A DNA stretch of 63,605 nucleotides, filler included, from Hausera hauseri (taxonomy: Eukaryota), in assembly GCA_046269625.1 (NCBI GenBank). It is 12 parts of 12 records of this genome, joined end to end, with 100 filler letters (N's around TTAATTAATTAA, not from the genome) between each part and the next. Parts side by side here need not be neighbours in the genome. Positions count along the whole stretch, not along the records: positions 54,383 to 59,366 come from JBJURY010370815.1; 11 more parts are not named here. One strand, given 5' to 3'. The position numbers and the translations under genes were made by a program. Below the pieces are notes generated by a model. The model saw only the letters and a list, made by a program, of their open reading frames with translations, searched no databases and had not been told where the DNA came from. How positions within the stretch are numbered: position 1 is the first letter of the stretch; every line of letters begins with the position of its first letter. Of this stretch, positions 5,392-59,466 are shown one piece after another.

Positions 5392-5491
5392 NNNNNNNNN
5401 NNNNNNNNNNNNNNNNNNNNNNNNNNNNNNNNNNNTTAATTAATTAANNNNNNNNNNNNNNNNNNNNNNNNNNNNNNNNNNNNNNNNNNNN
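5392..5491. other. Artificial contig spacer N44-TTAATTAATTAA-N44 (first of 11)
   Basis: Identical 100-nt spacers with all-frame stops also start at 12363, 17970, 23018, 27431, 32171, 36732, 42237, 48098, 54283 and 59367. 29352-29451 is a plain 100-N gap. Confidence 0.97.
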
Positions 5492-11405: not shown

Positions 11406-12462
11406 CTGAACATAACATCAAATTAATGAATTTAAATATTAACATAATTGAAAAAAATAAATACTGAGTAAAATTTGAAGTAGAAGCTTTCTTTAACATT
11501 AACAACAGTAGGCTTGAAATATACCAAATTTTGTTATGGAAAAAACATTGTTTTCAAAACTAATGTTTCGGAATCGCGCCTATAAATTTATAAACTCTCC
11601 ATTCAATTACATTTTTATATTCAACTAAAACAACTGTTTTTCAATAACTCTTAGTTCATCGACAATTTAAAATTCCAAATTGGTACTCGATTACCTATTG
11701 ATTTATGCCCATTTAAATTTTTTTTAGATTAACTAAGATCACTATTGGAATGTCCGACTGAGATTTCAATGAAATTTGTAATGTATGTAAATGTTGTAGA
11801 ATGGCCATGAACCGTGAATTTGTAAATATGCAAATCAAAACGAAACTGAAAAACGAAACCGAAACTAATGTTTAACGTTAGAAATTGAAAATTATTATTA
11901 ATCAGAGAAATTGTAGTGAAAATGTAAATATGAAAATATTCATTTGGAAAAGAAGAGTTGAATATTGTACGAAATTTTGAAAAATCAATTTGTAAATAAT
12001 AAATGTGAATTTATGCATGAAATTGTTTATGGCTGCCGACTATATAAGGCAATACCAAATCAGTTGATACAAACATTTGTGAAATTGAAGTTGAATTGTA
12101 TCGAGCTATTGGAAAGCTCTGAAGATTGCAAATTGAAATCGTTCAAGCTATTGAAGTATTCTACGATATTCGAATCGTCCTCGAAGGATTCTCAGTTGAT
12201 TGGTAAAGACTTGAAATTGTTACTAATTGCTAATCCGACGACTGTATCGTCCGGTATATTGTTTTATTTGTTAATAAAATTGTACTGTAAAATTCTCTTA
12301 TAGTTTTCCGTCGCTCCTTACGAGGGACTAGTACCACATTAAGGATTAAAATCATATTAAACNNNNNNNNNNNNNNNNNNNNNNNNNNNNNNNNNNNNNN
12401 NNNNNNTTAATTAATTAANNNNNNNNNNNNNNNNNNNNNNNNNNNNNNNNNNNNNNNNNNNN

Positions 12463-18478: not shown

Positions 18479-21400
18479 ATATGCCCTTCCCGTTACAAAG
18501 AAGAGTGACATTTACACTCCAGTAAATGGAAGTCTTCTAAAAAATCTCCTCTTATTCTCTCTATCTTTTGGTTTCTATTTCTTATCTCCCCTTTTCTGTA
18601 AATATGTCAGTTAATTTGACCTCTACCCTTAATTCTTATAATTCTTATTTTTATGTATGTACATGCCATTATCAAAGCACAAGTTATATCATTACTCCAT
18701 AAAATTCTCTCCACATATTGAATCACATGATAATTCAAAGTATCAGAAATTGCGAACATAAACAAAAATCATATTAATTTCCTCACGAAGCGTACCCCTT
18801 ATATTAAGAGTACAATAATTGCAAATGTGAATATTTCAATACAAGTTGATTACAACAAACACTGTACATGAGACTTTTCCATGCGTCAAAAAGGAAGAAA
18901 ATTCTACATAGTAACATTTTCATTCAGCATCACTTTGTGCCGATCAAAACTTCCCTGTCTACAATTCAACAATTATCGACGTTTTTCATTGAAAAAATTC
19001 ATTTTTCCCCTCACCAAAGTAAAAAAAAAATGAGCAAAAGTTTCAAAACTCAGAACATTTAACAACATTTTCAACCAATTTATTATGCATCTTCAAAAAT
19101 TTCAGTGCTTTTCATCTCTCAATTCTACCGGTCTGAACACACTTTCATCCTTCTCATTTATTCATCTTTTACGCTTAGTGTTATGTATATGTCTGCTGTG
19201 TTAATGTAGTCTTTCATGCGATTCCTTTCTCTCCTCACTCGCGGATTTGGGTTTAGGTCGTTCGTCTCCCATTCCATTCCCTGTGGGTTTTCTTATACTT
19301 CTTTATCTCCCTCGCTAGTTTCTAATTGGGGGTTTCCTTTGAAAGCCACCTTATTTCGCCCTCTCCTTTATTACTTCGTGTATCTGAATTGATTTGCATT
19401 TTCTCTTTGCTTGCATTGCCGTACTAATAGGAATCTTTGACGTTTTATAACTATCGTATGTTTTCCTAGCATGTTTTTGTCTGTGTGCTGATTGTTTCTT
19501 AACTTTTGCTCTCGGTTAATCGTTTGAACTGTTGTCGGAGTCTCTAAGTCTTTTCAACCTTCTTGTCATTTCTTCCATATCTGACACTTCTGTATCTTCG
19601 TCACCTTAGTCTTCATCTTCTTGTTGCTCTTTCTGTGTTGTTTAGTCATTATCTGCTGCATCCTGTTGTACGTGTCTTTGCTCTCTGTACACTAGTCTTC
19701 TCTTTCTTTCTACCAATGGAAGGTCGCTATCATTTGACGAACTACTAACTATGTTTTTTCTCCTCTTCCGTTGTTGTTCTTGTGCTTCTTCGAATCTTCG
19801 CCTAGCTGCTGCTCGAGTATTGCGATATGATGCATCGGTGGCTATTCGTTCTTGACTATCTGATTTCGCTTGTAGGAGTTTCTGTAGGAGTTTCTGCATT
19901 TCTCATTTGAGGCAAAAGAAACAGTGGTGTAACTAATTCGTATCTAGTGTCTGACTCATCGTTCTCTGACGTTTCTGTTGTACTGGACTTATTTGATGTA
20001 TCAGAGTCGCTATTCTCAGGTGGAACTGCGTAACGTGATTTCCTTTCTGTACCCGACGCTTCTGACTGTTTTCCTCTGGGAATGGTCTATCTTGCCTTCT
20101 CGGGTGGCTCGTAGTGACCTTTGCTGTCTGTCCTGTACGCTGGTTGATCATATGAGCAGGTACCCATAATAAGAATCCACCTTCACCATCAAGTCTGTAT
20201 AATATGTTATCCTCAGCCATGTACTTTTTCAGTTTTTTCAAACTGTCTTCGCTCTCAGTTTTCAGATCAGTGATAATTTGTTGGAGTTCACTATCTTTTT
20301 CTTGTTTGTCTTTCTACTTATTTCTGTATCACTTGGCTCAGATTCTATATTACTGTGTGTTTCACATGTCTGTCGATCAGTGGAATTGATGACTGATATT
20401 TGTAATGTGAAATCATCAATATCTGGTTTTCCTTCTTTGTCTTCAAACTCCATTTCTGCATGACCCTTTCAGGTATTCGAGACAGCAGGTCAGCAACAGT
20501 ATTCTTCGGACCGGGAATATATTCGATATTCATTTTGTAGCCTTGCAGATTTCAAATCCACGGTTGTATGCGTCTGTTTTGTACGTCTGCCTTCATCATG
20601 GCTTTCATGGGCATGTGATCGGTTCTAACAATGAATTCGCTATTATGTAGGTAAAAGTTAAGCTTCTGCAGAGCAACGTGAATTGCGTATGCTTCTTTTT
20701 CTGTTACAGACCATTTCTTCTGTGATTTCGTTTGCCTATGTGGTAAAACGTATATAGGTTTCTCCTTGACCTTGAGCTTCCCGTTTTCTTCTTCTTGACT
20801 TTATTCTTGAATTAAGACCGCACCTATTGCATTCTCCGAGGCACCCGTGTAAAGCTTATATGGTTTATTTGGATTTGGATATGCCAGAAGTGGTACAACT
20901 GATAGGCTGTCTTTTAGATATTCAAAAGCTTTCTGGCAAGTTTTGTCCCAGTGGAAACGTGTGAACTTCCTTATGAGGGCTACTATAGGTTCCGTGATTG
21001 CTGAAAAGTTTGGAATGAAGTGTCTGTAGTATCTACAGGTTCCCAAAAATGTGCGAACTTCCCTTGAGTTTTCGGTGCACCCATCGACTTAATTGCTTGT
21101 ACTTTCTCATTGTCTTCCTTGACTCCATCTTTAGTGATTATGAATCCTAGATTTTAAAAAGTCGCACTTGCTAAGTTTTAGGCGTACTTTATGTTGCCGT
21201 AGTCTGTCGAATACTATTTCGATATGCCGTAGGTGATCGTCTATATCCCCTATCGTGAATATCAATATATCGTCGATATACGCAAGAGCAAATGTTTGTA
21301 GACCTTCCAATACCCTATTCATTAGTGACATGTATGTCGCAGGGGATCTCTTAAGACCAAAAGGCATTACGTTCCATGCGTATACTCCTGAAAAAGTACA

Positions 21401-23017
21401 GAATGCACTTTTAGCTTTGGCATCAGGTGCCATTGGAATACACCAGAACCCTGATCTAGCATCAAGTGTGGTGAAGTATGTTGATCCGCCCAGCATGCCC
21501 AAAATGTCATCAATTAGAGGTAAAGCGAAACTGACATTTGTCGTTATATCATTGAGAGATCGGTAATCAACACAAAATCTATGTGTTCCGTCTTTCTTTG
21601 TGACGATGACTACCGGGAATGACCATTCAGAACGAGTACGTTCGATAATGCCTGCTTTCAGCATCTCCTCGATTGCTTTTTCGACAACCTTTCTGTTTCC
21701 TAGTGGAGTGCGATATGGTCTCAGACAGATAGGAGTATGATCACCGGTATCTATCTTCATTTCCTTCATCTGCATTCTTCCCAACTCCATGTCTGACAAA
21801 GCAAAGACATAGCTATGTTTTCGAACGAACTGTGCAGTTCTTTCTTTGTTTTCGTCTTCAACCTTTAGCGTTGCTAATAATTGCTGCATTCTTTCTTCAT
21901 CATGCATTATCACGGCTATTTCATTACTTGTATTTCTCCATTGACCTTGTCTTATCTCCTGTAATACCTTGGTTCTATGTGCATATCTTTGGTCTTTTCC
22001 ATCCTTACAAGGTGTTTGTTGCTTGACTTTATCTGGTTCTTGGCTTATTGGTGAACTCTGATTCTCTATCTGACTTAAATCTTTTGGTCTTTCTGATTTC
22101 GCCACTATACACCCTTTCTTTAAAGTGATTGTTTTCCCCGTATGGTTGACTAACATTACCGGAAATTCTCTCTTTGAATTTAGCTGGACCATACCATGTA
22201 TTATCTGTAGTTAACGTCGATGATGTTATCCTCTAATGGTTCAATCCTTGCTTGGTCAACATGTTTCCAATACTCGTTTTGTTTCATGGTGGCTATAACC
22301 AGATTTATTGAATTCGGTTTCCAGACTGCTTTTTGCTTCTCCCGTACAATGGAGGCAATGTGTATGTCGTCTTGAAGGTCGATATAGTCGTTATTGATCC
22401 GAATCTTCTTAGATCAAAGTGAATACGAGCATTGCTCTTATGTAAGAAGTATCGACCAAGTATGGTACTTCTAGACATGTTCGTAACTATGATGAAGGTG
22501 TGTTTCCTGGTGGTCTCTCCGATCTTAAATTCAAGGGTAGACTTTCCTTTAACCTGTATTGTACTTCCCGATACGGACCTAAGCTCAATGTCAGATGGTA
22601 ATAATTTGCCTTTATTCGTCAACGCTTTGTATATTCATTCACGCTGTATACAGTGTGCAAGAGGCATCTTACTCTCGTCTTTCCGAAATATAATATACAA
22701 GAACTTGGGTCGGATATATAATTGATTTCATAAGTTTTCTTTTTTCTTTCTGGAGAATTGTACGTACTAACGGTCTTGGACTCTTCTGTATACCCGTGAT
22801 GTTGCAGCTTTACGTGAAAGACTAGTTCGTGATTCATATTTTCGGCTTTGATTATTCTATGTCTTGTTTCACATCGACTGTGTGTTTGGGAGGGGACTTC
22901 TTGAACTCGTTGATGATGGGCATGAGCAACCTTGGGTACATGGGGAATGGGTGGGACATTTCTTATCTTGCTTGCTTTTCTTGATCGCAGGTTGTCAGAT
23001 GCACTTGATTTTACCGG
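18479..23017 (-). mobile_element. Ty3/Gypsy pol (protease, RT, RNase H) remnant lacking integrase core
   Basis: Protease-like ILGRYFL. RT motifs RFCVDYRSLN, LDARSGFW, VMPFGL and YIDDILI. RNase H YYRHFIPNFS and LYTGASENAIGAVL. Confidence 0.9.
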
Positions 23018-23138: not shown

Positions 23139-23321
23139 AAAGCAGGTGGGGATCAAACCCACAGTGTCGAATCGACACTCGCTCATTCCGCTTTCTATAC
23201 GCGACGGGCACGCCACATACAACCAGGCGACTCATTAGAAGCTCGCAATAAACCTAACAATTTCCAATTTAACATGGTTGGCTAGTCATTCCACAACCGT
23301 TGTCCCAATACGGAACTTGCA
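23139..23321 (-). ncRNA. tRNA-like structured repeat (SINE head or ncRNA), copy 1
   Basis: T-arm-like GTGGG-TTTGATC-CCCAC and a variable-arm-like hairpin; homologous to 54384-54553. Confidence 0.4.
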
Positions 23322-25224: not shown

Positions 25225-27430
25225 TTTTATCATCACTTAGTCATTTAGTGGATCCCCGTTCATGACTTTGTCTTGGGGTTGGATTTTTTGTATTTGTCGT
25301 CGGTCTCTGATCCGGCAGGATGGCCTCCCTGTTTGGCTGGTCAGTCTTTTGACTGAGCTGGAGCTGCGGTCGGGAGGGCTTTTGTGACTGGATTTGTGAC
25401 TCCTGTCACAGACTGAACGGAGGAAGATTCCGTCAAGGTTTCCAGAGCCTCTGGAGTTTATGTAGCACTGGGGTGTGCTAAGCCATTCCGATCCTTTGGT
25501 GTTGTTTCGGACCTGGCAGTTTCGTTGTTTTTGGATCTTAATTCAACAGAGTGTAAAAGTATGTTTAATCCGAATTATAATATTTGATTAGCTTATTGTA
25601 GTCCCATAGAGTTGATTATAAGTCCTATTATTATATATTGGGTAGTGGTTTTGTTATTTTAAGTGGGTAGTTTGAAGCCTATTCGTTCTGTCTAGTGTTG
25701 TGAGTGTTGAAGATGAGGAAACTGGTTTTAATAGCTGCTGCTGTGGTCTTCAGCGCAAGGGTCGCAATCTCAGGCTTTCTAAATCCCAGTTTTTTCAGTA
25801 TGGCATCATTTGTAGGGTACCAGCTGCCCATTGCGCATACCATGAATGTTTCCACGAAAATGTTCTCTAATTTTACACCCGTTTTTTTATGGTATAGTTG
25901 TTTAAGTGGCGAATATTTCTCGATGTTCTGTTTATCCACCAACTGTGCTGCTTCCCAGTCGTCGAAAGATGATTTCACATCGATAATATGCAGTTTACCC
26001 TTGTTGTAAATGACTAGATCCGGAAGGAGTACTTCTATTGACCAGCTTGGTTTTTCTTCCCTCGTTAGTTTTATCTTTTTCTCTAATAGGGTATCTGTGA
26101 GGATATCTAGTATTTTGTCATGCCTGGTTGTTATGAGTGCCATGTTTCTTTCGCAGTGGTTGAGGACATGTGCCTGTCCTTCTAGATCCTCGAGGCAATG
26201 TCTGCATTTCTGATTAGCACCAATGATTTTACGGAAGTATCTGTTGTTGAGTGGCAGGATGTTGTTACGTGCCAAGTATGCGAATCGCCATGTGCTAGGT
26301 GGCAGGTCTATTGTGTTCATTATTTTATTGGATAAATAGTGTTTTGATATCATTGATGCAGATTTTCCTTGGTAGTTGGAACTCTTCTCAGATTTTGGGG
26401 GTTTTGCCCATTCTTCATAGTAGTAAGTGTATACGAATTGGTGAAGTATTTTGCAGCATTGTTTGTATTTAGTTCTGTCCACGCTACATTCTTGTTTGGG
26501 TCGATTGATTATAAGTTTTATGTCGTTGTTCGAATCGGATTGAAGGCTGATTTTGATGCCCATACGTTTAAGGTGTTTGACTGAGCTCCTCACTTTGCTC
26601 CACCACGTCGCTGCGGGGTGTGTTATAGGAGTGGCCGCATCATTTAGCCATCTAAGTGCGTCCTCGAAGTTGGCTTCAGAACTGAATCTATCTTGCGTTA
26701 CTTGTACTGCATGTTTCCTGGCAGTTTCTCTCACAGTAGGGTCCTTGCTGTTGAATAGTTGAAACGCATGAGTTAGGTTCTGTACTGCATATTCGTCTTT
26801 TGCTGCAAGGAGTCCAAGGCCTCCTTCCTTAGTTCCGACATATGGGTAGTCGTTTCCTGCATGGTTTATTTGGGCTTTTAAGACATTGGTCTTCAGTATT
26901 TGTAGGACTTTGTGGTCATAATTAATGAATTTTGAGTCCGGTCCATTGGTACCTGAGCGTAGTGACTGCCACGGTACTGTTCTATTTCGGAGGTGGAACA
27001 ATAGAGTGGAGTGGATGAATGTCTTGTAGGCGTGTATTTTCTGAGCTGGGTGTAGTCCACTGTTGGATATTGTTGTCCAGTTGTTTATGCTAGTTTCAAG
27101 TATTTCTTTCATGCCTCTTCGTTTCTCGTGTCCGAAGGGAACACCCAGGTATTTGTAGTATTGCTCTCCAGTGATAGTTGGGACTGGTTGATTGTAGATT
27201 TTGAGAGTTTGTAGATTTGATTGTTTTCCTAACTTGAGATATCCACATTTTGTTGGATTGAAGATGAGGTTTGCTTGGGTAGCAATGTGGGCTATTCTTT
27301 GAACGGTATTGTTCAGTTCCTCAAAAGTCTTGGCAACGTACACTATATCGTCTGCATAGGCCAAACATCGTAGAGGCTTGTCGAAGATTTGTATTGGATC
27401 CTGAATGGTAGTTTCTGTTTCCGTCAACAT
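25225..27430 (-). mobile_element. RLE-type non-LTR retrotransposon (R2/NeSL/Utopia group), 3' half with 3' UTR
   Basis: Open 583-aa ORF 25679-27430 with LAYADD, YKYLG, CCHC knuckle CRHC...HVLNHC, RHD and PD-(D/E)xK endonuclease PDLVIY..IIDVK. About 450-nt UTR ending in a short A run. Confidence 0.9.
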
Positions 27431-27829: not shown

Positions 27830-28500
27830 CAGCATGACAAAATCGCTGACATGACCATTGTCGACATGAAAGCTTATCAATGTGAAAAATCCAAACATGA
27901 AAACTTGAGACGTGGAACATTGCTGCTATGAAAACTTACTGACATTCCACGCCGACATACAAATTTGCAGAGATCCCAAAGTCGCCGACATGAAAATTGA
28001 CGACACGAAAGTTGTCGGCGACATGAACGTTGTCGATGTCAAAGTTGGCGACATGAAAACTTGTCAATGTGAAAAATCCTAACATGAAAACTTGAGACTT
28101 GGACCGTTGCTGCTATGAAAACTTACTAACATTCCAAAGTCGCTTCACAAAAGTTGTCGACTCGAACGTTATGGATATGAAGGTTGTCGACATGTAAAGT
28201 CGCCAACATGAAACGTCACCAACATGACAAAGCCATCGACGTGAAAGTTGACGATACAAAAGGTGTCGCCACGAACGTTGTCGCAATAAAGGTTGTCGAC
28301 ATGAAAGTTGCCAACATGAAAAGTCGCCGACATGAACGTTGTTGACAATAAAGTTGTCGACCTGAACATTGTCGACTTGAAGGATGTCAACGTGAAAACT
28401 TGCTGACGTGAGAAAATCCTAACATGAAAACTTTAGATGTGGAACGTCACCGATATGAAAACTTACTGACATGTCCAAAGTCACTGACATAAAAACTGCC
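27830..28500. repeat. Degenerate ~19-20-bp minisatellite (CATGAAAGTTGTCGA-like) with higher-order repeat
   Basis: Many CATGAAA/GTCGAC variants. The block TGTGAAAAATCC.AACATGAAAACTT recurs at ~27880, ~28068 and ~28408. Confidence 0.8.
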
Positions 28501-30545
28501 CACATATGATCCTATAAGCATGAAGAAGACGACCTAAACCACCACCAGCACCCTTAAGAAACCCTACCTTAACAGAAAATATGACCCTTCTTGTCCCGAC
28601 TTCCTCCCATAGATATGCTCAAGCATGAGGAAGACGACCTAAATATCGTCAGCACCCTTAAGAAACGCAATTTTAACATAAAATATGACCCTTCTATGAC
28701 CTAACGTGCTATTAAAGACATGCTCAAGCATGAGGAAGTCGACCTTAACATCGCCAGCACCCTTAAGAAACCCAACCTTAACACAAAATGTTACCCTTCC
28801 ATGATCCGACATGCCCCTAAATATAAAGAAGATGACCTAAACCACCACCAGCACCCCTAAGAAACCCAACCGTAACAGAAAATGTTACCCTTCCATAATC
28901 TGGCATACCCCTAACCATGAAGAAGATGACCTAAACCACCACCAGCACGCCTAAGAAACCCAACCTTAATAAAAAAAATGTCACCCTTCCATGATCCGAC
29001 ATGCCCTTAAACATGAAGAAGACGACCTAAACCACCTCCAGCACCTTTAAGAAACGCAACCTTAACAGAAAATATGCCCCTATAATGATCCGACGAGCTC
29101 CCATGAACATGAAGAACACGACCTAAACCACCCCCAGGACTCTTAGGATACCCGACCTTAAGAGAAAATATTCTCCTTCCATGGTCCGACTGTCTCCCAT
29201 GAACATAAAGAACACGACCTAATCCACCCCCAGGACTCTTAGGATACCTGACCTTAAGAGAAAGTATTCCCTTCCCATGATCCGACATGCCCTAAACATG
29301 AAGAAGATGACCTAAACCACCTCCAGTACCCTTAAGATACCCAACCTTAACNNNNNNNNNNNNNNNNNNNNNNNNNNNNNNNNNNNNNNNNNNNNNNNNN
29401 NNNNNNNNNNNNNNNNNNNNNNNNNNNNNNNNNNNNNNNNNNNNNNNNNNNCCATGATCCGACATGCCCTAAACATGAAGAAGATGACCTAAACCACCTC
29501 CAGTACCCTTAAGATACCCAACCTTAACATAAAATGTTATCCTTCCATGTCCCAACTTGCTCCATGAACACGAAGAACACGACCTAAACCACCTCCAGCA
29601 TGCCCAAGCTTGGGGAAGACAACCTAAAGTAGCTCTATCACCCTCAATAAACCTAACCTTAACAGAAAATATGACCCTTCCGTGTCCCGATTTGCTCCCA
29701 AAGAAATGCTCAGGTATGAAAAATACGATCGAAACCACCACCAGCACCTTTAAGAAACCCAAACATAAATGAAAATATGACCCTTCCATAACCCACATTG
29801 CTCCCATAGACTCAAGCATGAGGAAGACGACCTAAACCACACCCAAAACCTTTTAGAAACCCAACATTACCAGAAAATATGCCCTTCTATGACCCGACTT
29901 TCTCCCATGAATATGAAGAAGACGACCTAATCTACTTCCAGCACCATTTAGATACCCGCGCTTAACAGAAAATATGTCTCTTCCATGTCCCGACTTGCTC
30001 CCATGAACATGAAGAAGACAACCTAAACTACCTCCAGCACCCTTAGTATACCCAACATGCCCCTTCCATGACCCGACTTGCTCCCATAAACATGAAGAAG
30101 ATGACCTAAACCACGATCAGCACCCTTAAGATATCCAACATGCCCCTTACTTGATGCAACTTGCTTCCGTAGACATATCCAGCATGAGGAAGACTATCTA
30201 ATCACCGCCAGCACCCTTAAGAAACCGAACTCTAACCGAAAATTTGCCTTTTCCATGACCCATCTTGCTCCCCTACACACGCTCAAGCATGAGGAAGACG
30301 ACCTAAACAACTCCAGCACTCTTAAGACACCCAACCTTAACAGAAAATATGCACCTTCCATGATTCGACATGCCCCTAAACATGAAGAAGTCGGCCTTAA
30401 CCACCACCAGCACCCTTAAGATTCCCAACCTTAACATAAAATATGCCCCTTTAATGATCCGACATGTCCTTTAACATGAAGAAGATGACCTGAACCACCG
30501 CCAGTACCTTTAAGATACCCAACCTTAACAAAAAATATGACCCCT
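28500..30545. repeat. ~95-110-bp tandem satellite
   Basis: About 20 units of CATGAAGAAGACGACCTAAACCACC.CCAGCACCCTTAAGA.ACCCAACCTTAACAGAAAATATG.CCCTTCCATGA.CCGAC; an inverted partial unit at ~27745-27829. Confidence 0.9.
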
Positions 30546-33500
30546 TATAAATGTATATGGAGATGTCGGAAGATCATGGTCCCTAATAACTCTTACAATG
30601 CTACACTTATATGACATGGCACATGGTAATATCTAGACATAACACGTCATAATCCCCTCCTCATCACCCCTACTATATATGTCATCAACAATGATGATGG
30701 TGAGACTAACTACATAAAAACCGATAAAAATATTTACTTACTTAAATATATCTAATGGAGGTGACGGAAGGTCTTGGTCACTATCCTTATAAGATAACAC
30801 CCCCATCCCATCACCCCTACGACCGCTACACATCATCGCTTCTATCACTATTCCCGCTCCCTAATCCTAACTAACTTTGTCATAAACAAATGATGATGAG
30901 GGAAAAAAATGAAAACATGATGATGATGAAAAATTCTTACCTTACAGAAAAACAAGAAATCTAACTACATAAATTCCTTATATAACCTTAGCTCCAGAGC
31001 CCCTAATTAAAAAGAATGATGATGATGAAAAAAAAAAATTTAACAACATAAATATGCTTACTTTGCGGAAAAATAAGGAATCTAACTACATAAAAATGCT
31101 TACGTTGCAGAGAAAGATAGAGCCTTGTTATCTAAATCGGACCCCCTTTTTCCCTTGTAACCTTACTGCATGTGATCTTCAGATCCACATGAATACTTTG
31201 TTATATGGGATCGTATGATCCACATGCAAATTCTAAACATTATGTACATCCTATTACTACTCACCTTCGCTAGGACTCGGGGTTAGCGAAATTATTTATC
31301 TCTTCCGCTTACCTGTGTTTCGAACCATGGCCTTTCTTGTCAAGCTTTGAAGTGCAAAACATTAAATCCTTCTGCCAGACCATTCCTCGTCCATTTTATA
31401 TGGAGACGTGTTGCAAGCCCATTACAAAACTCCGATCTTTTCACACCCTGCCCAAAAGCCAAAAGACTTTCCAAATCGCCTGCTTTTTCAAACTCCTACA
31501 CTCCATGTTCAGAGTTTCTTTGATGTCTTGTGTCCAGCGGTGTCTCGGTGAAACTTATGCCAGAAACCGTACTTTCCTTTATAATTCCTTCTGGACCATC
31601 ATGTTCTTTTATGTGACGAAGTTTTACAGTTTTTGAGCCGTGATAATGTTTATGAGTCTGGTTCTCTGATGTTCACTTCTTGCAGCCTGACTTATTTTTG
31701 TTGTTGCACGATTGTCTGAAGACTTTTCTGTAACAATTTGTTTCTAAATGTTCAGTCATTTGTTAATGGTCTATAACTCACACCTGTAGGTCGCCACAGA
31801 ATAAATACGTGCTTCAGAAATTTTACTTTGGCCATATGGTCTTCAGATCAACGAACTTCTTTGGTCAAGCTAGTTCTGTCTTCCTTTCAACAGTCTTCGG
31901 TTTTTTTAGCTATGGAATTACATTATTCGAAATTAGTAACAATTTTAATGTCTAAATTATTGTTGTTAATTTGGGGTTGGCGGTTAATTTTATCAGCAGG
32001 CATTATTTTTGGTTTGTTTTTAATGTTCAGGGAAATGTTTTGTGCTTTCTTTTGTTTTGTAACAGACATGCTGAGTTTTTTTTTTTACTCCAGACCTTTA
32101 TGACTGGAAGAATGACTGTATCACATGTGTATATTAGTTCTGAAAATGAACTATAATCAGTTATGAAAGGNNNNNNNNNNNNNNNNNNNNNNNNNNNNNN
32201 NNNNNNNNNNNNNNTTAATTAATTAANNNNNNNNNNNNNNNNNNNNNNNNNNNNNNNNNNNNNNNNNNNNATCGATGGCACACATTAGCACTTTAACTTT
32301 ATCGATTTATTGATTGATGCAATATTGATTTACCCATTTACCAAAGATCAATTTATCGATTTTCTCGCTTGACCGATTATCGGTTACCATGGCAACGGCC
32401 ACCTTGTGCGGTATCTAAAGAACGGCCTCCATAGTGAAGTTTCGTAGTTACGATACCCTCGGGAGGCTGGTGTAGAAACCCCATCTCATCTACTAACTGT
32501 AGAGGAATTGATCATAACGTATAGCATAATAACACATTTAACGTATCTTTATGCATACATCCCATTTCTCTCAACCAAATAAGTCGTCATAAATAAGTTC
32601 AACTGAACCTAAAACTTAAATTTGGTGAGTTAAATTTGTATTAATAATTGGTTTATACATTTGGTATGATGTTAACTTTTTTTATTTTCAAAATCAATTC
32701 ACCACGACGTGATGGAATTGATCTATAAAGGTTTTCTAGCATTTCACTGTCACTTATATTCCATGTTGACGAAATGACAGATTTTTATTCTTATTTGGTT
32801 GCATACTGCCTTCAATTTTCGTTAACTTCACGTGATGCGGCAGACCAAGCAATTTCAATTATGTTAATATCTGGAGAGTACACCAACCATTTCAAAAACC
32901 TTAATATAATGGTCTTCAAATCAGTTTTGATTCTCTTTAGCTGTACTGCTGGAATACATTGTTGTCTCTAATAAATAGTAACACTTTGCAAAGCATGATA
33001 TTTACACAATTCTTTGTATCCCCAGTTCCCTTGGTAATGAATACATCCAATTTTGCGTCGCACAATATGGTACTCCATACCATAATTTAGTTTCCCAAAA
33101 AAATCAAGTTTTGTTAAATATGATCAATTTGTAAGAAAAATTTGACTATTCAGTTGAAATGTTCTAACTATATTGTTAAGGGAAAAACGTTTTCCATTCT
33201 ATTGAATGGTTAATCACATACTGAGATAACAATAGGTCATATTCTACAAAATGCAATGAGTTATGGTATGTAGTGTTATATCAATTCCCACGTAACTCTC
33301 GAATGGGGAGCAGTATTATTATTATTTTTACGACAACGACGCACTCCACTCAGTTTGAATATTTTTAGTAATTTAGCAGATTAGTCTACGTATGACTTTA
33401 TGAACCGACTGTCCCAAATGGAACTGCTTGTACGACCACGAGCTAATAAAATCATTTGTTTACTTATCCTAATACAAAAGTTGTTTGACAAATAAAATAT

Positions 33501-36831: not shown

Positions 36832-37849
36832 CACAACGACTACCAAATTTAACGCCACAAATGTAAATGTTCTGTATGTACAAAATGTAAATAACTTACG
36901 AAACATGAAATGATTGAAGATATGTGTTGCCACCACGCTTCTGGATAACTTCCTGGATTCGTCGAGACATGGACTCATAGAAAGTGTCTAATATGTTCTG
37001 AGCCGTTCCCATCCAAAGATCTTTGGCTAACTGAAAAACGTCGTTGAGATTGAGAGGACTGTGCTGGTCCAGTCTAAACTTCAGGTTAGACCACAGATTT
37101 TCAATCAGATTAAGGGCTGGACTCATAGCTGGCCACCTGGAAACCTCAATGTTATTAGCCTGAAGCCATGCATTGGTGCGCCTTGCTGAATGTGATGGCG
37201 CGTTTTCTTGTTGGAAAATTCGGGCAAGATGTTGCTGTAAATGAGGCAAAAGTACGTTCTGGAGCACTTTAATGTATGCTGCGCTATTTAGCGTGCCACA
37301 AACTCTCTGTAATGGCAAAACGCCAGCTGAGTGAATGGCGCCACACACCATTACTGTACCACCACCAGCCTGAGTCTCTAAACAAAACACATTTGGTTGC
37401 CGGTGGACATTATCGCGCCACCGAAAATAATGTCGCTTCCGTCCTTGGAGAAGGTGAAGTGGTATTTCATCGAAGAATATTATATTGAGCCACTCATTGA
37501 CATTCCAATGACGATACTGCAATGCGAAATCAAGACATCGATCTTTGTAACGAGCTGTATGGAGTGGTTTTCGCTTTGCGACCTTTATTTTCAATCCAGA
37601 TTGAAGCAATCTTCGTCGGACTGTGCGAGAACTGATATTAAGTTGCAACTGCTGGTTGAATTCCTGTAGGGTACAACGCAGGAATATACCATATATTTGT
37701 CTGTTTTGTCACACAAATGTTAATCTTGGCCAGGAAGACCCAGGAAGTCTTTCAACAGTACCATGGATGTTGTGCTTCATCATAATTTTGGAAATAGTAG
37801 TCCAGCTAACGTTCAATCATCTGGCCAGCTCAGCTCTTGAGATGTCCTC
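36832..37849 (-). mobile_element. Tc1-family transposase remnant
   Basis: SRTVRRRL, KRKPL, IIFFDE, VMVCGAI, FQQENAPSH and WPAMSPALNLIENLW. The 5' part is cut by unit E3. Confidence 0.9.
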
Positions 37850-42710: not shown

Positions 42711-44710
42711 TGTGGTGCCCACAGCGGCCGGCGTCCTCTAGCCCATTTGTTTGGACACGGCCGGGCGTCCGCCGCCGCCGCGTCGGGTCCATAGGCGGGC
42801 CCCGATCTTCCGCCTTGAAAGACGTTACGTCAAGTAGCACCTCTAGTATCACAAATGACTGCACTGTTGATCCGTCAAACGATGCACAAGATGCAGTCAT
42901 CTGTTCAGAGAAAAATACTAAAGTTATTTGTAGTTTCTACCAAAACATAAACTGAGTTTAAAGCAACCGAAGCAGTTATTGTCATGTCGAGTGCCTGAAA
43001 TTCTGAAAGCTGAACTGTTGAATTGTCTGTCTGTATTCTGTCAGCAACCTGAAGATGTAAGATCCATTTGGAATGCTCTTCAGTCCTGTAAAGTCATCGC
43101 CAATTCATCTGAATATTCGAATTCAAGTATTCAAATAGAACTTGAAGTTGTGGAACCGCGGTCTGAAGAGTACTCAATTACCAGGGAATTTATTAAGTTC
43201 CTTTTGTGCGTTACTCCACATCTTGTTCGTGACATAATACACATGGATTTGCATGGTCAACCCGGTGACCAGTTCAATACGTCAATGGTCTCTTTACCAT
43301 CAATGCATCCGTCTGTCGACAGTCTGACGAACATCATTCAAATGGTGACGGAGTCTGTATTTCTAAAACATTCCCTGAGAACCTATAGAAACATAGAGGA
43401 AAAATTCGAGATTGCTGAATTATTTTTGAAATTGTGTTACAAGTGTTGATTTGTTTCTTGGTGTCAATACGATCCTGGATTCTATATAATAACACAACTG
43501 CTCACCGAGTCGCCGTTTTTTTAAACTGTTGTCAATATTATCGAAGAAGGATTTTGCTAAGTCACAGAAGCCTTAAACAACGTTACTTATGGACCGAGGA
43601 CAATTTTCAATGAGGCGTTAAAGTCACTGGAAAGTTCAATTCAATATTCCATGGATCTGCTGTGTATGTTGTAGAAAAACGAAACACACTTGTTACCTTT
43701 GATGAGATCTGTCAACTAGGAACATAAATGATTGATGTCGATCAAACATTTTATTGAACCGTAACCGTCCATTAGTGATGGTCGGATGTAGTCATTTAGT
43801 GGTGACATCGAATTCTAGTGAAGGATTTCTGACAAATCTCATCAAATGTGAAACTTGTTAATGAATGTGACGAATTATGTATGAAGGCATTGGAATTATT
43901 TCATTACTGTACCAAACTAATTCATTGCCATAAGTATATCATGTTACCATTTGTACGTAGAAATTTGACGATTACCGATTATGATTTAATGCAGATACTT
44001 GTCAATTGCCTTGATAAATATGGCGATATTGATGACGACATATTTGATGATGAAATGGAACAATTTCGTGACAACTTTTCCATGAAATTATTCTTTACCG
44101 ATGATCATTTACTGATAACACCCCGTTCTATTATTTTACAAATACTCGTTACTTGTCTACAATATCCGACACCAAATATCGGTCAACATTTGATGGGTTT
44201 TTGCTGTGAAAATGTCAATTCAGTAAAACATAGAGCACTACAAGAAGCCAGTGTCGGCGATTTCCCAAAGACCTGTCTCCATTATTAAATCTGGTCCAAC
44301 GATTAACGAAAGATATTTTATCCAATCTTTGTATGAATAAGAATTGCGATACGAATTGTGATCCACATGCTTTGTCATCATTTTATGCCAATAATATCCA
44401 TTTATGTTTGTCATATCAAATACTGTATTTGTTATGCAGTAAAAGTTGTACATCCGTAGTCGGGACATTAACTAATGTATTTGTTTAAATAATGTAAAGA
44501 AATTTATGCTTTAGTTTGTGAAATTTGATTTTAATTAAAACGTGCATATAATCCGACACTGAATTAATTTTATTGATACTGCTTTAAAGCATTTGCCATT
44601 CAATTTCAGAATTTTATTTTGATTCCGTTTTTTTTAAATTCTGGATTTGTCGCTGGACGAGTTCATTGCCATATATTCGGCTACCCTTTGTGATTATATT
44701 TAGATCCTCA
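42711..44710 (+). mobile_element. Cargo-carrying insertion unit E2 (TG...CA, 2000 bp, 5-bp TSD GTCAC)
   Basis: GTCAC at 42706-42710 and 44711-44715; termini TGTGG...CCTCA. Excision restores pPolB NSEKRLVTYTSRTQFRRSMHIADG. Confidence 0.88.
42870..44460 (+). pseudogene. NUP205: Nucleoporin Nup205 internal fragment (cargo of E2)
   Basis: LKAELLNCLSVF, IQIELEVVEPRSEEYSITREF and ILQILVTCLQYPTPNIG..LMGF...GDFPKTCLH match remembered Nup205 segments; stops and frameshifts; no obvious introns. Confidence 0.75.
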
Positions 44711-49594: not shown

Positions 49595-52111
49595 ATATTT
49601 GCTCCATAATGAGAGTCACTACCCGTTGTTGTATTACCGGTCGTGTTTCATGGACATCTAATGATATTAACTACTACGTCCAGCAAATTGATCGATCTCC
49701 GGTGAGTCCGTTAGTCCATCGTCCTGTTGTTTATTAGTTGTCAATTTTTGCGTGCTGCATACAGTGCGTTGGGCATTGTCATTTGCTTGCATTTCATTTT
49801 TATTTTTCTGTTTCTCTGTTTGTGTGTGTTTAATGATTGATTAAGGATAATTCATTTATTACATAATATATACATATATATACGACCAGACCTCAAATTT
49901 CATTGCCTTTTTGTTTTGATGCCCATCGGACGTTACCTGCATGTTGATGTTTCTATTCCCGTACAATGGGCATCATCGGTAAGACCATTTCATCAATATT
50001 TGTTTTTTTGTTCTCCATCTTGTACATCTCTCTCTCGCTCTTCTCTCTTTCTCTCTCTCTCTGTGTATATCATACATGACTTAGACATTGTATGTAGATG
50101 TCGGCTCTATTCTACGAGTGAAATCTCTAAATGCTATGGAAAATGCTGTATCGTGGACTTGTACGGCATTTAGTTACTATCTCCATCAAGTCGACTATTC
50201 TATGGTAAGGTTCATTGATTCTCATTCTATCTGTCTGTTTTGTCATTGGGTCTGGTCGTGATTGTTTGTTTGTTTGCTGGCATCGTTGTTTTCATGTTTA
50301 TCATTGGTAATTGGACTATTGACTTTACATTAACAACAGCATCTTTTGATAATGATTATTAAATTATTTTCCCAAACAAAACCAAATTATGCAACACGGG
50401 CTTCTAAATGTTACGTCATTAAGAAACTGGTTAGTAAATATAACCAGTATGGATATTCCCCCTCCATACATTTTTCATGCATAACACCCCCTCCTCATAT
50501 TGCAGTAAAATTGGTTTTTTTGTGTAACCGGGGGAATTATGTACAAGTGTATGGAAGGAAAAACATATCTGTGAATACTGGATAATCCACAATAAAAAAT
50601 TCAATTTAGTAGTATAAAAAATAATTTATTGAATGAGAATTATGAAAATTACCCATGACAAATGTTGTGTGCGTGTGTGTAAGCGGCTGTGTGTGCGTGT
50701 GTGTGTGTAATTGAGTATTTTGAATGATGTTGACAAAATGTTATTTCTTATGTAGCTGGAAGATTATTTTGCCAAATACAAACATAACAGACAATCAAAG
50801 GCAATTGAAGCCGACAACAGTAAAAGCAAGACGGGTAGTAGTAGTAGTAATAACAACAGAAACTCAGAAGCACCATCAACAGAAGGCAGCAGTAATGAAG
50901 GGAAATGTCATCAAAAAGAGAGTCAATCATTAGATAAATTATTACAACCGCATAATGAACGTGTCATGAATGAGTCCAATGAAGGAATCAATGGACGTCC
51001 ACGTAGATTGTCAAAATCATTAGATGGGAAAAAGGACATATTGAGGAATAATCGAGTTAGTGAGAGGATACGACAGAATACGAAGAAACGTCCATTGCTT
51101 ACTCGAGGTCAGAATGAGGAAGGAGCGGGAAGAAATAGGAAATCATTAACAAGTAGTCATCATTACCAGGCACCATTAATGAAGAGAGGACGATTACGTA
51201 AGACTGAATCAATACCGAGAAAAGATACAACAACAACAACAGCAGTAAGTGGAGAGGGAGGAATAATCGATGAAAATAAACAACCTGGTATGACAAGTGA
51301 TGCAGTCAACATAGAATTACTGTACCAAACAACAATAGGGAATATTTATGGACAACGACCATCAGCCAATGGTGCTGAATTGTGTCGTTATGTCAGTCAG
51401 TATGTTCCACGATCATTTGATAATATCACTGATGCCTTGCGATATGCTAATGAATTATCCGATGATATCAACATAGGTCAAATGGGATCAGTACCAGTTG
51501 CGGTACATCAATATTTAGAATTAATTAAGCATCAGTTATTACGACATATAACATTAATGCGTCATCCTGATTATCGTAATCACTTATTAATGGAAATTGA
51601 CAATCAACGGGCAATAAGGGATATGTTACACACACGGGTACATGAACTAGAATTACAAATACCAAAATTGCATAAAGAAGGGGTGTCATTATTGACCGAC
51701 CATTTATGCAGATTGGGTATCAATGCTGATTCTCCTAGTAGTTTCTTCTCGGAGGCACGTAAACTAATCAAAGAACAGGCTGTTGTTGAAGCGGACAATT
51801 CTCGATTGAAAGCAGAAATCAGCGAATTACTCGCATCTCAACGTGAATTGCGCGAACACATCCGTCAACAAGATGCCCGACGACAACAAGAAGCGGCTAT
51901 CATGGCATTGCATAGCAGTCAAATGCTGGAACATTTGATGATGACATCTGTTGCACAACAACACGATTGTAATAATTCTATCCTTGGTGGTGGTGGTGGT
52001 GGTGGTGGTGGTCCCACATCAGAATATGTGACATTGTATTCACCAATCAGTAAGGCATCTAGTCCAGATCTTGCTTCTGGTACTGGTGGTGATACGTCTT
52101 TGATTTGTTGA
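49595..52111 (+). CDS. DOT1L: DOT1L/grappa H3K79 methyltransferase, 3' exons (49595-49701 or 50098-50204, then 50756-52111)
   Basis: DVGSILRV...AVSWT...SYYLHQVDYSM|LEDYF matches the DOT1L DIGTIMRV..SVSWTGKPVSYYLH.IDR.ILENYF segment. The downstream coiled coil (QYLELIKHQL...LGINADSP) is like DOT1L/gpp. Splice sites are canonical and in frame. Confidence 0.8.
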
Positions 52112-53624: not shown

Positions 53625-54383
53625 TACAAATAAAGTGTTTTATGAAACTTCGTTTTAAATATTGCGACGAAAACAATTATTTATTTATGATATTGCTAAA
53701 ATATTCAATAATGTCACACGTTTTAGTATAACAATTTCCATAACATCGGTGCAACAAAAGTATGTACAGTTCTATTCAATGAATTTTGTTTTCAAAGAAA
53801 TTTGATTAACCGTATTTTAATTTCGTCGTATTTGTTTACATATATAGAATAAGAAATTTTGTTTGAGCAAATCTTTTGCTTCTTTAACATTAAAGCTGCG
53901 ATAAATTTTGCTATACCTTAAGTGGAGCCAAATTGACCACCACAGAGCTTTTCTCTTTAACGGTAACCTTTTGAAATAATCAAAACAAAATTCAAACTGA
54001 TATTTAAAGTGTGTAATTTGGTGATAAAAGCGTAGTCGCCTCGGGCAATTGAAATCTCGTGATGAGCCACATACACATATCAGATCGATGGACTTACAAA
54101 TAAATATACTCATGATAACAGATGTAACAATTAGCCCGTGTTTCCCCATCCTAGTATTTTGTTTTGCATGATCAGCGATTGACATGCGAACTCTTATCAC
54201 AGACAAGAACTCTTCTGCATTACCACATACATTTGGATAGATTCTATTTTCTGCATTGTGTGTCATTTCGTGGACAATTTTCNNNNNNNNNNNNNNNNNN
54301 NNNNNNNNNNNNNNNNNNNNNNNNNNTTAATTAATTAANNNNNNNNNNNNNNNNNNNNNNNNNNNNNNNNNNNNNNNNNNNNG

Positions 54384-54553
54384 AAAGCAGGTGGGGATCA
54401 AACCCACAGTGCCGAATCGGCACTCGCCCATACCGCTTTTAATAAGCGACGGACACGCCACATGCAACCGCACGAAGCATTGGAAGCTCGCTGAGAAGTC
54501 GAACTATTTTCAATTTGATACGATTAGAACCGTTGTCCCACTACGAATTTGCA
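54384..54553 (-). ncRNA. tRNA-like structured repeat, copy 2
   Basis: Homologous to 23139-23321 with a compensatory change in one hairpin. Confidence 0.4.
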
Positions 54554-55630
54554 CAACCCTTTGCAATGCCATTGCGTCGCCAAGCGCTTAACACAAAACC
54601 TATCGACACGGTCCACCTCAACACCACTACATAAATGTTGAACTGGAAGTTACAAATTGAGTTTTCAAAGCTATTATGGATTTTAAATTTAACACACGTA
54701 AATTTGATTGAAAACATTTTGTGTGTAATATATGGAAATCCACTTACAACATATGGAAAGGGCAAAAAAATTCGGTTAAAATGTTAATCATATATAGATA
54801 AAATTATGGATCAAATAACAAAAGACTAAAAAAAACTGTGAAATGTCGCTGTTATTGTCTTAATTTGATGCAGGAAATGTCCAGAGATGACTAAAAATTT
54901 CGATAGGAGTGCGTGGTATTTAAATAGCGAACAAGTGCAAATAATTATCAATCTTACAAACGTATGATTGTTTTAATAACTATCAAGGTCACATTCATAA
55001 CCACAATTCAAGATTTTCTCTCGACTCTGCACATTGAACTTCGATATACTGTGAAAATTCAATAAATATATATATGGTTTTGTTTTATTTTTTAAAATTT
55101 CAGTCTACTCTATTAACTTGTTTAAATTTACAACTCGAGAAAGACTTTATAATTACCATACATGTTGATTGCATCAAATGAATGCTACACGTGTATGCAT
55201 GCAATTTAGTTTATGTTGATATATCATTTTGATAAACTTGGTACATTTCTGTAAAATTTCCACGGACTGCAACAAAATTTACTAATCTTCGCAAGTAGTT
55301 TGTATGAATTGCATAATAAGAATGCAACATTATTAATTGAAATCACACATTTTAATTAGTCATATTTGCTTAAATGTCAAAAAAATTCAGATATGTAAAC
55401 AGAATTCAAAGTTTGTATGTTATAAAAAGCATTCGTTAATGCATAACAAGTGGCATTAGTCCAAAATAATAACATTCATTTTTATCGTAAGATACATCAA
55501 ATTCCCACATGCACAGCTGAAGAGCAATAAACATGTTACAAACAAACAAATAAAATCAGACAAAAAATCGATAAGCAGTCACGTAGAAAAACAACATGGT
55601 TTATTAAAAAATATCTATCATAAAAATTCC

Positions 55631-56299
55631 TTACAAATCTTCTTTCGTTTTTAACGCACTAACAATGGCCGGTTCTAATACATTTTCCATACTAAAATTA
55701 TCGAAATACTCAATGAGCTGCCCACTGCGGCCGACTGGATGCTTCCGGGAATTCCAACCGGGGGATTCCGATTTGTCTACGCTAAATAAATCAAGAATGT
55801 CATTATTTATTTACCCAGTATGAATTTCCAAACATCAGGAAGTTCTGATTCATCACTTGTGAGGCTGATTTTTTGCATCAATGGAAAATTAATTTTATAT
55901 TGCTCGCTTGCCCATTTATTAACAAATACCGAATTCTACTTGTAACATTATTAAGTACCACGTGTTAAACTATTTACCGAAGGTTCCTGTCTGCCGAAAT
56001 CGTTGCACGGAAAAGCTAAAATAACTAAACCAGAATTGCCGTATTTTTTCTGCAATTCCACGTACATTTTGTAATGACTGTCTGTATAACCGCATTCGCT
56101 AGCTACATTTGTTAATAACAAAACTTTTCCGGCATAATCTGATAATTGTACAGTTTTTCCTTCATAATCTTTGATTGCCAAATTAAAAACAGAATGTTCA
56201 CTATGTGCATAACCTTAATTTGTATACGTGATTTTTAATATATTTTTCATCAAACTTACTTATAAATATGAATAAAAATATCAATAGCATCCTTGACAT
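55631..56299 (-). CDS. ER glutathione peroxidase, GPx7-like (exons 56260-56299, 55978-56213, 55815-55935, 55631-55776)
   Basis: Signal peptide, TNVASECGYT (Cys type), LAFPCNDFGRQEP, C-terminal KEDL. Three 38-46-nt GT-AG introns keep the frame. Confidence 0.85.
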
Positions 56300-56672
56300 A
56301 CCAGAAAAATTGCAAAAAAATTACAAAATCTGTCCCTCCGACTTTGAACTCGAAATAATTAAAACAAAAGTTCATTATTTGAATCAAATAGAGGGTGATT
56401 GCGACAAAAATACAAGTGTACTTTGAAATTAATCATACATTGCTGTGGCTATCATGACATGTTGGGTAGTCATAGTTTCAATATTTATATTACGACTGTC
56501 CAAGACTATTGACAGCTTCAGTATTATAAAGAAAAGTTCTTAAAGTAATTTCTTACGTTGCATACACACCCGCACGCTTACTAAGGTTTGAATTACAAGA
56601 AATTGTTTTAATATCTTATAAGATTTGTGCATATTTAAAAATTTTAGTACACAATTTTTGAGTAAATCGAAA
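56300..56672. promoter_or_regulatory. Divergent intergenic region between GPx and PRP31 (putative bidirectional promoter)
   Basis: Head-to-head start codons about 370 bp apart; no specific motif identified. Confidence 0.4.
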
Positions 56673-58338
56673 ATGTCTCTAGCTGAAGCAATGATGAATG
56701 ACTTTGACATGGCTCAAATGGAGTCAATGAACGTAAATGAAAACGTTGGTGAGTTGGAGGAAATTGACGAAAATGTCGATTTAGAAATGACTCAATATTA
56801 TCTGGATAAACCTGCGTCCGAGATATCCAAATTAAAGGACAGCGAAAAGGTAAATAGTGTCTGATGTTAGAATTTACGCAAATTCTATTTCAAATTAGTA
56901 TTATATTATTCAAATTTAGTTGAAGGAAATGCTGCACAGTATTGAAAATTTCCGTTCCGTAAACATAGAAAAAAGATTTGGTTCGTTTGAAACAGATCCC
57001 GAATATGAACTTATCGTCAAATCGAATGATCTGATTACAGAAATTGACAATGAACTAAATGCGTTTCACAAGTACACAAAGGATATTTATTCGGCAAGAT
57101 ACCCAGAATTAGCAACTGTCGTAGCAGATCCAGTGCAATACATTCGATGTGTTAAGGTGTGTTAATTTCGCTGAATTTTTGTTGTCTTCATGATTTATTA
57201 ACAACAATGATATTATCAATTTATTTTATCCAGATATTCGGAAACGACATCAGCAGCATTACGCGACATCAAGACGCTCTTAAAAAGTTCCTCGATCCAG
57301 CAATTATCATGAGCATATCCGTATCTGCCGCCAAATCCAATGGTACAGAACTGACAGACAGTCGATTGGCGAACGCGATGTTGGCATGCGACAACGCAAT
57401 TGAGTTACAGGATGTAAAGGATTACATTTTGATCTTTGTCGAATCTCGAATGGCCTTCTTCGCACCGAATTTATGTACACTGCTGGGTCCGTCTGTGGCA
57501 GCAAAACTTATGGGTAATGCTGGGTACGTTCTCAATTGGACTTGTGTTAAATGCACGGTTTGTAGGACGAGCCGGTGGATTGAAGTCACTGGCAAATACT
57601 CCCGGATGTAATTTGTTGAATTTTGGCGCCACGAGACGCGGTGATTTTAGCGTAGTGAATCCCGTGACGAGGAATCGCGGTGGATATATCTGCAATTCCG
57701 ATGACGTGAAGAAATTGCGACCGGACATTCGTCTGAAAGCCGCCAAGCTATACGCAAATAAGGCCGTCATTGCGGCTCGCGTTGATTTATCCAACAGATT
57801 CCGGAACGGAGAGGAGGGAGAAAAGTTGCGAGAAGCCGTACAGAAAGCCATCGACAAGCTTCTAGAACCGCCGCCGGTGAAAGCTATCAAACCACTTCCG
57901 GCACCGATTGATTTACCATCGAAGCGACGCGGTGGTCGACGCTATCGAAAGCGCAAGGAGCGACTGGGAATGACGGAAGTGCGAAAGAGTGCAAATCGAA
58001 TCGAATTTGGTGGTATTGAAGACTCGTACGATAATGAGATGTCGGTGAATGCCGGTCGATTGGGTCGAACGAATAAAATCAGGGCGCCGATTGCTGACGC
58101 AAAAACGAAGGCCCGAGTCAGTAAGACTCTGAATCAGCGACTACAGAAACAACAACAAGCACAGACGGCACTTTGGGGAGGTACGACGTCGATCAAGAGA
58201 AACATTTCGGGTGTGTCAACGACTGTCGCGTTTACGCCGATGAAGGGCGTAGAGATTTCTAATCCAACTCCAATAGACAACAAGCCCGAAGTTGGATCGA
58301 AATATTTTTCAAATTCTGCTGCATGGCAGAAGAAATAG
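56673..58338 (+). CDS. PRPF31: U4/U6 snRNP protein Prp31 (exons 56673-56849, 56920-57156, 57234-57513, 57566-58338)
   Basis: MSLAE, DPEYELIV..N.LI.EIDNE, YS.RYPEL, FVESRM.FFAPNL, AARVD and KPLPAP...KRRGGRRYRK; in-frame canonical introns. Confidence 0.93.
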
Positions 58339-59466
58339 TTTTCGTTATCATGATTTGCATTTGTTCTTTCTTGATGTTGTTTGAATTTTTATTTCTCCGT
58401 TCCAGCTTTTCTGTCTGGTTCTGACGACCGAGAAAACCTTGTGATAATTTCAATTTTCTACCCATCTGTGAACATTATTCTCGTAGCATATTTACCCGGT
58501 TTATGGATTTTATTATTTTCTAATATTGCGAAGATCACAAATGGAAGTGGCTGTAAAACGCATTCGGGAAAAATGCGACCTTATGCACAATGGACTTTTC
58601 AATTGGAATTCAATTCAGCCGTCAATGCTATTACATAATACTGCTTTATATGGGGTTGTAGTATAAGTTATGTCAATTGACATTTTTGTTACTAAGTAAC
58701 GAATATTTTCAACCTATTGTTACCGATTCTTCTACCATAACAATAGTTGCGACGTCATATTCACTTTAGATATACGAAAAAGTCAATCGATTACTCGAGT
58801 AAATTGTAAAATAATTTATCAAAAATTTCCAATAATTTTGTAAATTACGAAAATTTAAAAGTTAAAATAATAAATGTTTGAAGTGATTTTCATGAATCAT
58901 TAAGAACAACTTGAGTCATATTCTAGATAAAACAACTCAATAAAAACAAGTAATTATGAGTTTCTGTCATCAGTGCTTTCAATAAAACTGGGGAAATTGA
59001 TGCAAATTTGGAATATCCTATAATTGTCCAGTAAAATGTTAAAATGCTGCATTTGTTTTGTTTATTTAAATATCTAAATTCATATTATTTGACCTGTGGG
59101 TTTTTGATTAATATATGCTTCTTTCTGAATTTAATTGACCCAACAATTTCTTTTTAAAATGACTATAAAAATACAGTAATTGCAACTTATACTACAACCC
59201 CGTATAAAGAACTATTATGCGGTTGAAATGAACCTGGAGACTGAAGTGAGCTATTCCCAGCGGCTGATGTTACGTAAAAATTATGACATAATGTTGATTG
59301 TGTCCTTCAACGTTTTTTTAAACTTTTCTAACGGTCCGTTTTCTATCATCCTATCTTTATTTTTATNNNNNNNNNNNNNNNNNNNNNNNNNNNNNNNNNN
59401 NNNNNNNNNNTTAATTAATTAANNNNNNNNNNNNNNNNNNNNNNNNNNNNNNNNNNNNNNNNNNNN

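Follow-up and report, generated by a model that had tools for sequence, protein, structure and literature searches.

A dense tract of A/T-to-G/C transitions separates two versions of a GPx7/8-like exon in a likely triclad planarian

Why should a peroxidase gene that looks otherwise intact carry WNSRKHPV in place of WNFWKYLV? The window, that is, the whole stretch of DNA analysed here, comprises 63,605 nucleotides (filler included) from Hausera hauseri, and in exon 4 of its GPx gene the minus-strand positions 55756-55733 encode WNSRKHPV. The first-pass annotation traced this reading to plus-strand G at 55749, 55747, 55741 and 55737. It considered obligatory C-to-U editing of the mRNA, A-to-I hyperediting by ADAR of an antisense RNA, with the product written back into DNA by reverse transcription, or a local read artefact. 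The four G are present, and four C-to-T changes do yield WNFWKYLV. The question is whether the motif has to be restored in RNA or was altered in the DNA. Our answer is that the altered tract is probably a real derived DNA variant, for which no RNA editing is needed.

The window contains 11 gaps (e.g. 54283-54382 and 59367-59466), each of which is an N44-TTAATTAATTAA-N44 linker. It consists of contigs of 2-7 kb joined end to end, and adjacency in the genome is not implied across the gaps. Because the linkers join separate contigs, the physical context of the GPx gene is limited to 54383-59366. The main features of this contig are as follows.

56260-56299, minus strand: exon 1 of the GPx gene, a hydrophobic N-terminus with a signal peptide that is putative from the sequence; the N-terminus of the Dugesia japonica homolog is similar
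55978-56213, minus strand: exon 2, with the GSHPx domain (PF00255, E 9e-24, above the cut-off), the active-site Cys and the glutamine of QEP
55815-55935, minus strand: exon 3, from the gene model
55631-55776, minus strand: exon 4, ending in KEDL-stop
57433-58338, plus strand: PRP31, by its Pfam domains Nop and Prp31_C; it and the GPx gene are arranged head-to-head
54383-54630, no strand assigned: high-copy repeat about 1 kb past the 3′ end of the GPx gene, with a summed depth of 519 in the bin 54500-54630

The gene is an ordinary GPx7/8-type peroxidase. As had been claimed, it is intact outside the patch: four exons on the minus strand, separated by GT-AG introns of 46, 42 and 38 bp, encode 180 amino acids. 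Cys, Gln, Trp and Asn form the catalytic tetrad of GPx enzymes. In the homolog alignment, the window protein carries C54, Q89, W140 and N141, with a peroxidatic Cys rather than Sec. The hydrophobic exon 1 and the C-terminal KEDL, both read from the gene model, are ER-targeting features. The closest protein is the GPx of D. japonica, at 71% over exon 2 (next best 63%) and with 98 of 160 residues identical overall. The best solved relatives of the latter are human GPx8 and GPx7, both of which carry WNFWKYLV, as had been stated for GPx7. Because the closest GPx protein comes from D. japonica, the host is likely a triclad planarian, the GPx match being the one ground for this assignment. No further triclad GPx orthologs were recognised among the homologs listed.

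The neighbouring PRP31 gene is very divergent. It is about 50% identical to all the listed animal homologs, with an end branch of 1.87, and in the tree it forms a long branch whose placement is unsupported, with no triclad rows named. Among 100 conserved columns of PRP31, 26 differ, and no A/T-to-G/C pattern was evident in them on inspection. Beyond this gene, a 36-bp inverted repeat (58634-58669 and 59184-59219, 92% complementary, 514 bp apart) is possibly a MITE.

Several other features were observed elsewhere in the window. An open frame of 635 amino acids at 9510-11417 on the minus strand had no Pfam matches. Its C-terminal end is a hydrophobic segment followed by a short tail that may resemble a KASH peptide, and its last 40 bases are locally GC-rich. 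Remnants of mobile elements lie at 25679-27430 (minus), 3254-4279 (plus), 36896-37708 (minus) and 21131-22210 (minus). Their types include non-LTR reverse transcriptase (RVT_1, zf-RVT), protein-primed type B polymerase (DNA_pol_B_2) and Tc1/mariner transposase, and one of the frames is, by its motif, presumably LTR-type RT-like. The segments 42934-44288 (plus), 50756-52111 (plus) and 5050-5439 (minus) include a Nup192/205 fragment and a serine carboxypeptidase fragment. We assume that 50756-52111 (plus) resembles the C-terminal part of DOT1L, a likeness that is without Pfam support. In addition, self-alignment revealed a degenerate tandem array at 28500-30550, with units of about 100 bp.

The first-pass annotation had proposed looking for an unmutated paralog or allele, and an intact version was found at equal depth. 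The evidence for it comes from the contigs of one public run, whose type is not on record, whose depth is low (about 6) and which is probably the source of the assembly, and so not independent of it. In the comparison over 54500-58400, this run spans the introns and shows no splice joints; therefore, it behaves as DNA. Over 55695-55813, the bin depths are fully accounted for by exactly two contig arms with a summed depth of 11.6. One arm is the window version (5.7). The other (5.89 of the 11.6) is intact over the patch and reads WNFWKYLV, and the adjoining unique contig has a depth of 5.72. As the two versions are separate contigs at equal depth (about 5.7-5.9), a simple consensus or base-calling error, which had also been suggested, is unlikely. 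We found 12 differences between the versions, 11 of them in 55725-55764 and one in intron 3.

55725-55764, minus strand: hypermutated 40-bp tract of exon 4, with 11 transitions, A/T in the intact version and G/C in the window version
55727, 55730, 55737, 55741, 55747, 55748, 55749, 55763 and 55764, plus strand: nine A>G changes from the intact to the window version, by comparison of the versions
55725 and 55742, plus strand: two T>C changes from the intact to the window version, which are A-to-G on the coding strand
55783, no strand assigned: the intron 3 difference, T in the window and C in the intact version, opposite in direction and not polarised
55503-55724, no strand assigned: shared flank on one contig, depth 14.6, no listed differences
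55784-56151, no strand assigned: shared flank on one contig, depth 13.2, no listed differences, holding intron 2 and most of intron 3

The four substitutions recognised at first are real, but as a description of the patch they were incomplete. The 11 changes cause six amino-acid changes in the window version (F137S, F142S, W143R, Y145H, L146P and N150S), and three of them are synonymous. The two shared flanks together comprise 590 bp without listed differences. The tract was correctly described as unusually GC-rich: its GC content is 67.5% in the window version versus 40% in the intact version, and it comes fifth when the window's local GC excesses are ordered by size.

Comparison with homologs indicates which version is the older. 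The S, R, H and P of the window version at the four motif positions were found in none of the 212 homologs aligned (of 214), and in none of the 141 homologs with WN aligned (of 149 examined) in a second, more diverse representative set. The earlier statement that WNF.K.LV is near-invariant held for W, N, F and K, but not for V, which is present in only 85/141 and 11/212 homologs. At residues 137 and 150, D. japonica has Y and D rather than the S of the window version; the simplest reading is therefore that the intact version is ancestral at all sites of the tract. With the polarity taken from D. japonica and the homologs, the window version is the derived one. It lacks the WNFWKYL motif that the intact version has, and it is probably non-functional.

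All 11 changes run in the same direction (P ~0.001), and all are transitions (P = 0.0005-0.02 for assumed transition fractions of 0.5-0.7), with 0/11 transversions and no indels in the tract. Clustering this tight was obtained in 0 of 200,000 random placements, and it has P = 3e-6 even under 5% heterozygosity. It is likely that the 11 changes came from one burst. On the plus strand, 9 of 15 adenines (60%) were changed, versus 2 of 9 on the other strand, an asymmetry that is not significant (P = 0.10). Grouped by 5′ neighbour, the changed plus-strand adenines were 3/3 after T, 3/6 after A, 1/2 after C and 2/4 after G. The WA context was not enriched (8/11 of the changed versus 8/13 of the unchanged sites, P = 0.68), and changes were not adjacent more often than by chance (P = 0.39). 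A one-strand model with 1% background lay 4.5 log-likelihood units below a free two-strand model, the ADAR neighbour weights in this comparison being assumed. Two extra background differences within 40 bp would have P = 0.002-0.026.

The local sequence was also surveyed. As RNA, the plus strand of the intact tract folds weakly (-3.6 to -9.1 kcal/mol), and several of the changes convert A-C mismatches of the predicted fold to G-C pairs. No inverted repeat covers the tract among the 25 longest of the 68 in the contig, and no donor sequence for the tract, with a match longer than 15 bp, was found within the window. Templating by a hairpin or quasi-palindrome was rejected, as the window version is no more stable (P = 0.07-0.99) than random sets of equally many changes, drawn 1,500 times in each of 8 settings.

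Whether the two versions are alleles or duplicates is a separate matter. Depth is 13-14.6 over the 3′ part of the GPx gene. It is 5.7, 3.3, 4.7 and 6.8 on four unbroken contigs over the 5′ end of the gene and PRP31, for which no variants are listed. The step down to 5.7 falls at 56151, inside exon 2, where 406 depth-letters of the bin are unexplained by the listed pieces; depth dips by themselves are no finding. Judging from depth, a second copy or haplotype likely branches off at 56151. Because depth dips are no finding and the branch is known by depth alone, these data give a weak hint of a 5′-truncated duplicate beside the high-copy repeat. If there is a truncated duplicate, the damaged arm would most naturally belong to it, and the window may be a chimera formed through 368 identical bases. 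Alternatively, the damaged version may be a null allele in a heterozygote whose haplotypes differ in structure further upstream. Further single differences, at shares of about 1/3 to 1/2 (5.9/17.1 at 55493 and 55502), occur 3′ of the gene in 55344-55502, which suggests a third copy or haplotype there. The high-copy repeat itself has a perfect palindrome with an 8-bp stem near 54409-54425 and is 76% like 23139-23321. Pfam in six frames returned no matches for it, and Rfam returned none on the contig. It is a possible, putative source of antisense read-through.

The explanation that we place first, tentatively and with somewhat less than even confidence, is ADAR A-to-I editing of an antisense RNA followed by reverse transcription into DNA. 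A plus-strand transcript, antisense to GPx and perhaps reading out of the neighbouring repeat, would remain unspliced and pair with the GPx mRNA. ADAR would then edit the nine adenines of the antisense RNA in the tract, and reverse transcription of the edited RNA would create a second, intron-containing copy, possibly 5′-truncated and ending inside exon 2. The assembler may have crossed from the full-length gene into the damaged arm within the 368 identical bp, in which case the working gene would encode WNFWKYLV. The purity of the changes, all A-to-G on one strand or the other, and their density on the plus strand suggest an adenine deaminase. As an antisense transcript would be unspliced, introns are expected in the copy, and the introns kept in the shared flank agree with this origin. 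In the available text of PMC8797187, T is over-represented just before the sites edited by planarian ADAR2, and the change of all three adenines after T is in line with that preference. According to the part of PMC9989829 at hand, ADAR is known to act on paired sense and antisense RNAs in some animals.

Some observations fit ADAR imperfectly. The earlier suggestion of this mechanism agrees with the plus-strand density and the adenines after T, but less well with the changes on the other strand and with those after G. ADAR avoids a 5′ G, and two of the four adenines after G were changed. The two opposite-strand changes are interleaved with the other nine. Moreover, the tract is just 40 bp long, and no change is listed in exon 3 or elsewhere in exons 2 and 4, which would pair with the mRNA as well. 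The accessible part of PMC5625713 describes hyper-editing as rare in coding regions, which also counts against ADAR, as does the weak fold of the intact tract. Nor was any poly(A), target-site duplication or antisense transcript observed.

The short tract and the two strand classes would be better accounted for by a single error-prone synthesis pass over a short repair patch, made by a Y-family or similar polymerase or with a skewed dNTP pool. Taken as a whole, this explanation is doubtful but of appreciable weight. In it, the polymerase would have made nine insertions of G across from a template T and two of C across from a template A, and the product would be a null allele or damaged duplicate that persisted in a mosaic, regenerating animal. 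The consulted portions of published studies agree with parts of it. Errors of translesion polymerases may lie close together or in tandem (PMC1635245); regenerated Schmidtea polychroa gains C>T and T>C changes, for which polymerase errors under weak mismatch repair were suggested (PMC10899757); and planarians, in which damaged variants and mosaicism are common, tolerate many non-synonymous variants (PMC4654569; PMC6587288). However, 11 of 24 A/T sites were changed without any transversion or indel, which is far above the rates given for pol zeta in the same part of PMC1635245 (about 3e-5 for tandem mutations and about 1% for complex mutants). The lack of enrichment for WA and for adjacent changes is also against this explanation.

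A library artefact is decidedly unlikely. One aberrant molecule would have to be amplified, by PCR or whole-genome amplification, to haplotype depth and then be picked by the assembler. The data leave some room for this, coming at the contig level from a single low-depth run with no library type on record. Nevertheless, the depth of the window arm matches those of the intact arm and the adjoining unique contig, and we know of no common library chemistry that yields 11 pure A/T-to-G/C transitions within 40 bp.

GC-biased gene conversion, or conversion by a diverged pseudogene donor, might have left a weak-to-strong island between homogenised copies. All 11 changes are weak-to-strong, and GC-biased conversion is able to fix harmful AT-to-GC changes, as stated in the available part of PMC12290510. 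The complete lack of transversions, the 590 bp of flank without listed differences, the placement of all the changes on one version and the absence of a donor in the window make this improbable. Equally improbable is an R-loop route, in which the gene's own mRNA paired with the template and ADAR deaminated the DNA strand of that hybrid, the two remaining changes being RNA edits copied by RNA-templated repair, so that the resident gene was altered in place. No antisense RNA would be required; the plus strand is the template strand, and the expected pattern, a majority of plus-strand A>G and a minority of T>C, matches the data. Long matched hybrids are substrates of full-length ADAR2, which edits their DNA strand, but in the excerpted text this was shown in vitro only (PMC5389660). 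No support in vivo was found, and Drosophila Adar controls R-loops independently of its editing activity (PMC12261683, likewise in part). A density of 60% on DNA would also be extraordinary. Obligatory C-to-U editing of the mRNA, for all that four C-to-T changes give WNFWKYLV, deserves practically no credence, because the intact genomic version makes it unnecessary, the two coding-strand A-to-G changes, which no C-to-U reversal can reach, make it insufficient, and the three synonymous changes are left unexplained.

It is unlikely that ADAR adenine deamination is inherited in planarian host-gene DNA, whether by conversion or duplication of the gene from an edited antisense transcript or through editing of the DNA strand of an R-loop, with two-strand A-to-G bursts that disable exons in one step.

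If the tract is real, it would be a clean one-step A/T-to-G/C mutation burst in a conserved host exon. Because its unmutated source is present in the same data, RNA editing and an error-prone polymerase can be directly tested against each other in planarians as the writer of the changes. Should inherited ADAR deamination hold, and should haplotypes of these animals often differ by such clusters, this would be an undescribed mutational process in stem cells. Motifs that seem to need RNA editing in low-coverage assemblies can also reflect the assembler's choice of a damaged copy.

Among known systems, the protein itself compares with the GPx7/GPx8 Cys-peroxidases (human GPx7, PDB 2p31; GPx8, 3kij/3cyn; D. 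japonica, M9NV22). It shares with them the active-site Cys, QEP, WN, an N-terminal hydrophobic segment and an ER-retention-type end, and the intact version matches the WNFWKYLV of both human enzymes. The window version differs by its S, R, H and P at four positions, residues that no examined homolog has there.

For the tract, the comparison under the ADAR reading is with viral and retroelement DNA. ADAR-type A-to-G hypermutation is known in proviral and retroelement DNA (RAV-1, avian leukosis virus), where dense A-to-G changes in DNA affect about half of the adenines of one strand. Here, in contrast, an exon of an intron-containing host gene is affected, over 40 bp, and two of the 11 changes fall on the opposite strand. 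Pol eta makes A>G clusters at WA, a context without enrichment in our tract. Translesion-polymerase clusters such as those of pol zeta, as far as the available text of PMC1635245 describes them, are similar in placing several substitutions in a short patch in one event, whereas the density here is much higher and the changes are transitions only. APOBEC footprints in LTR retrotransposons likewise consist of clustered transitions of one type between near-identical genomic copies. In the part of PMC4866542 at hand, they are strand-biased G-to-A changes in vertebrate LTR elements and are at noise level in 19 invertebrate genomes; the changes here are A/T-to-G/C in an invertebrate host gene. Our literature search, in the portions of the sources available, turned up no comparable cluster described for a host gene of a planarian, which is weak evidence of absence. 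The present case stands apart in that the burst of A/T-to-G/C changes is dense, involves both strands and lies in an exon of an intron-containing host gene, the intact source being present in the data as well.
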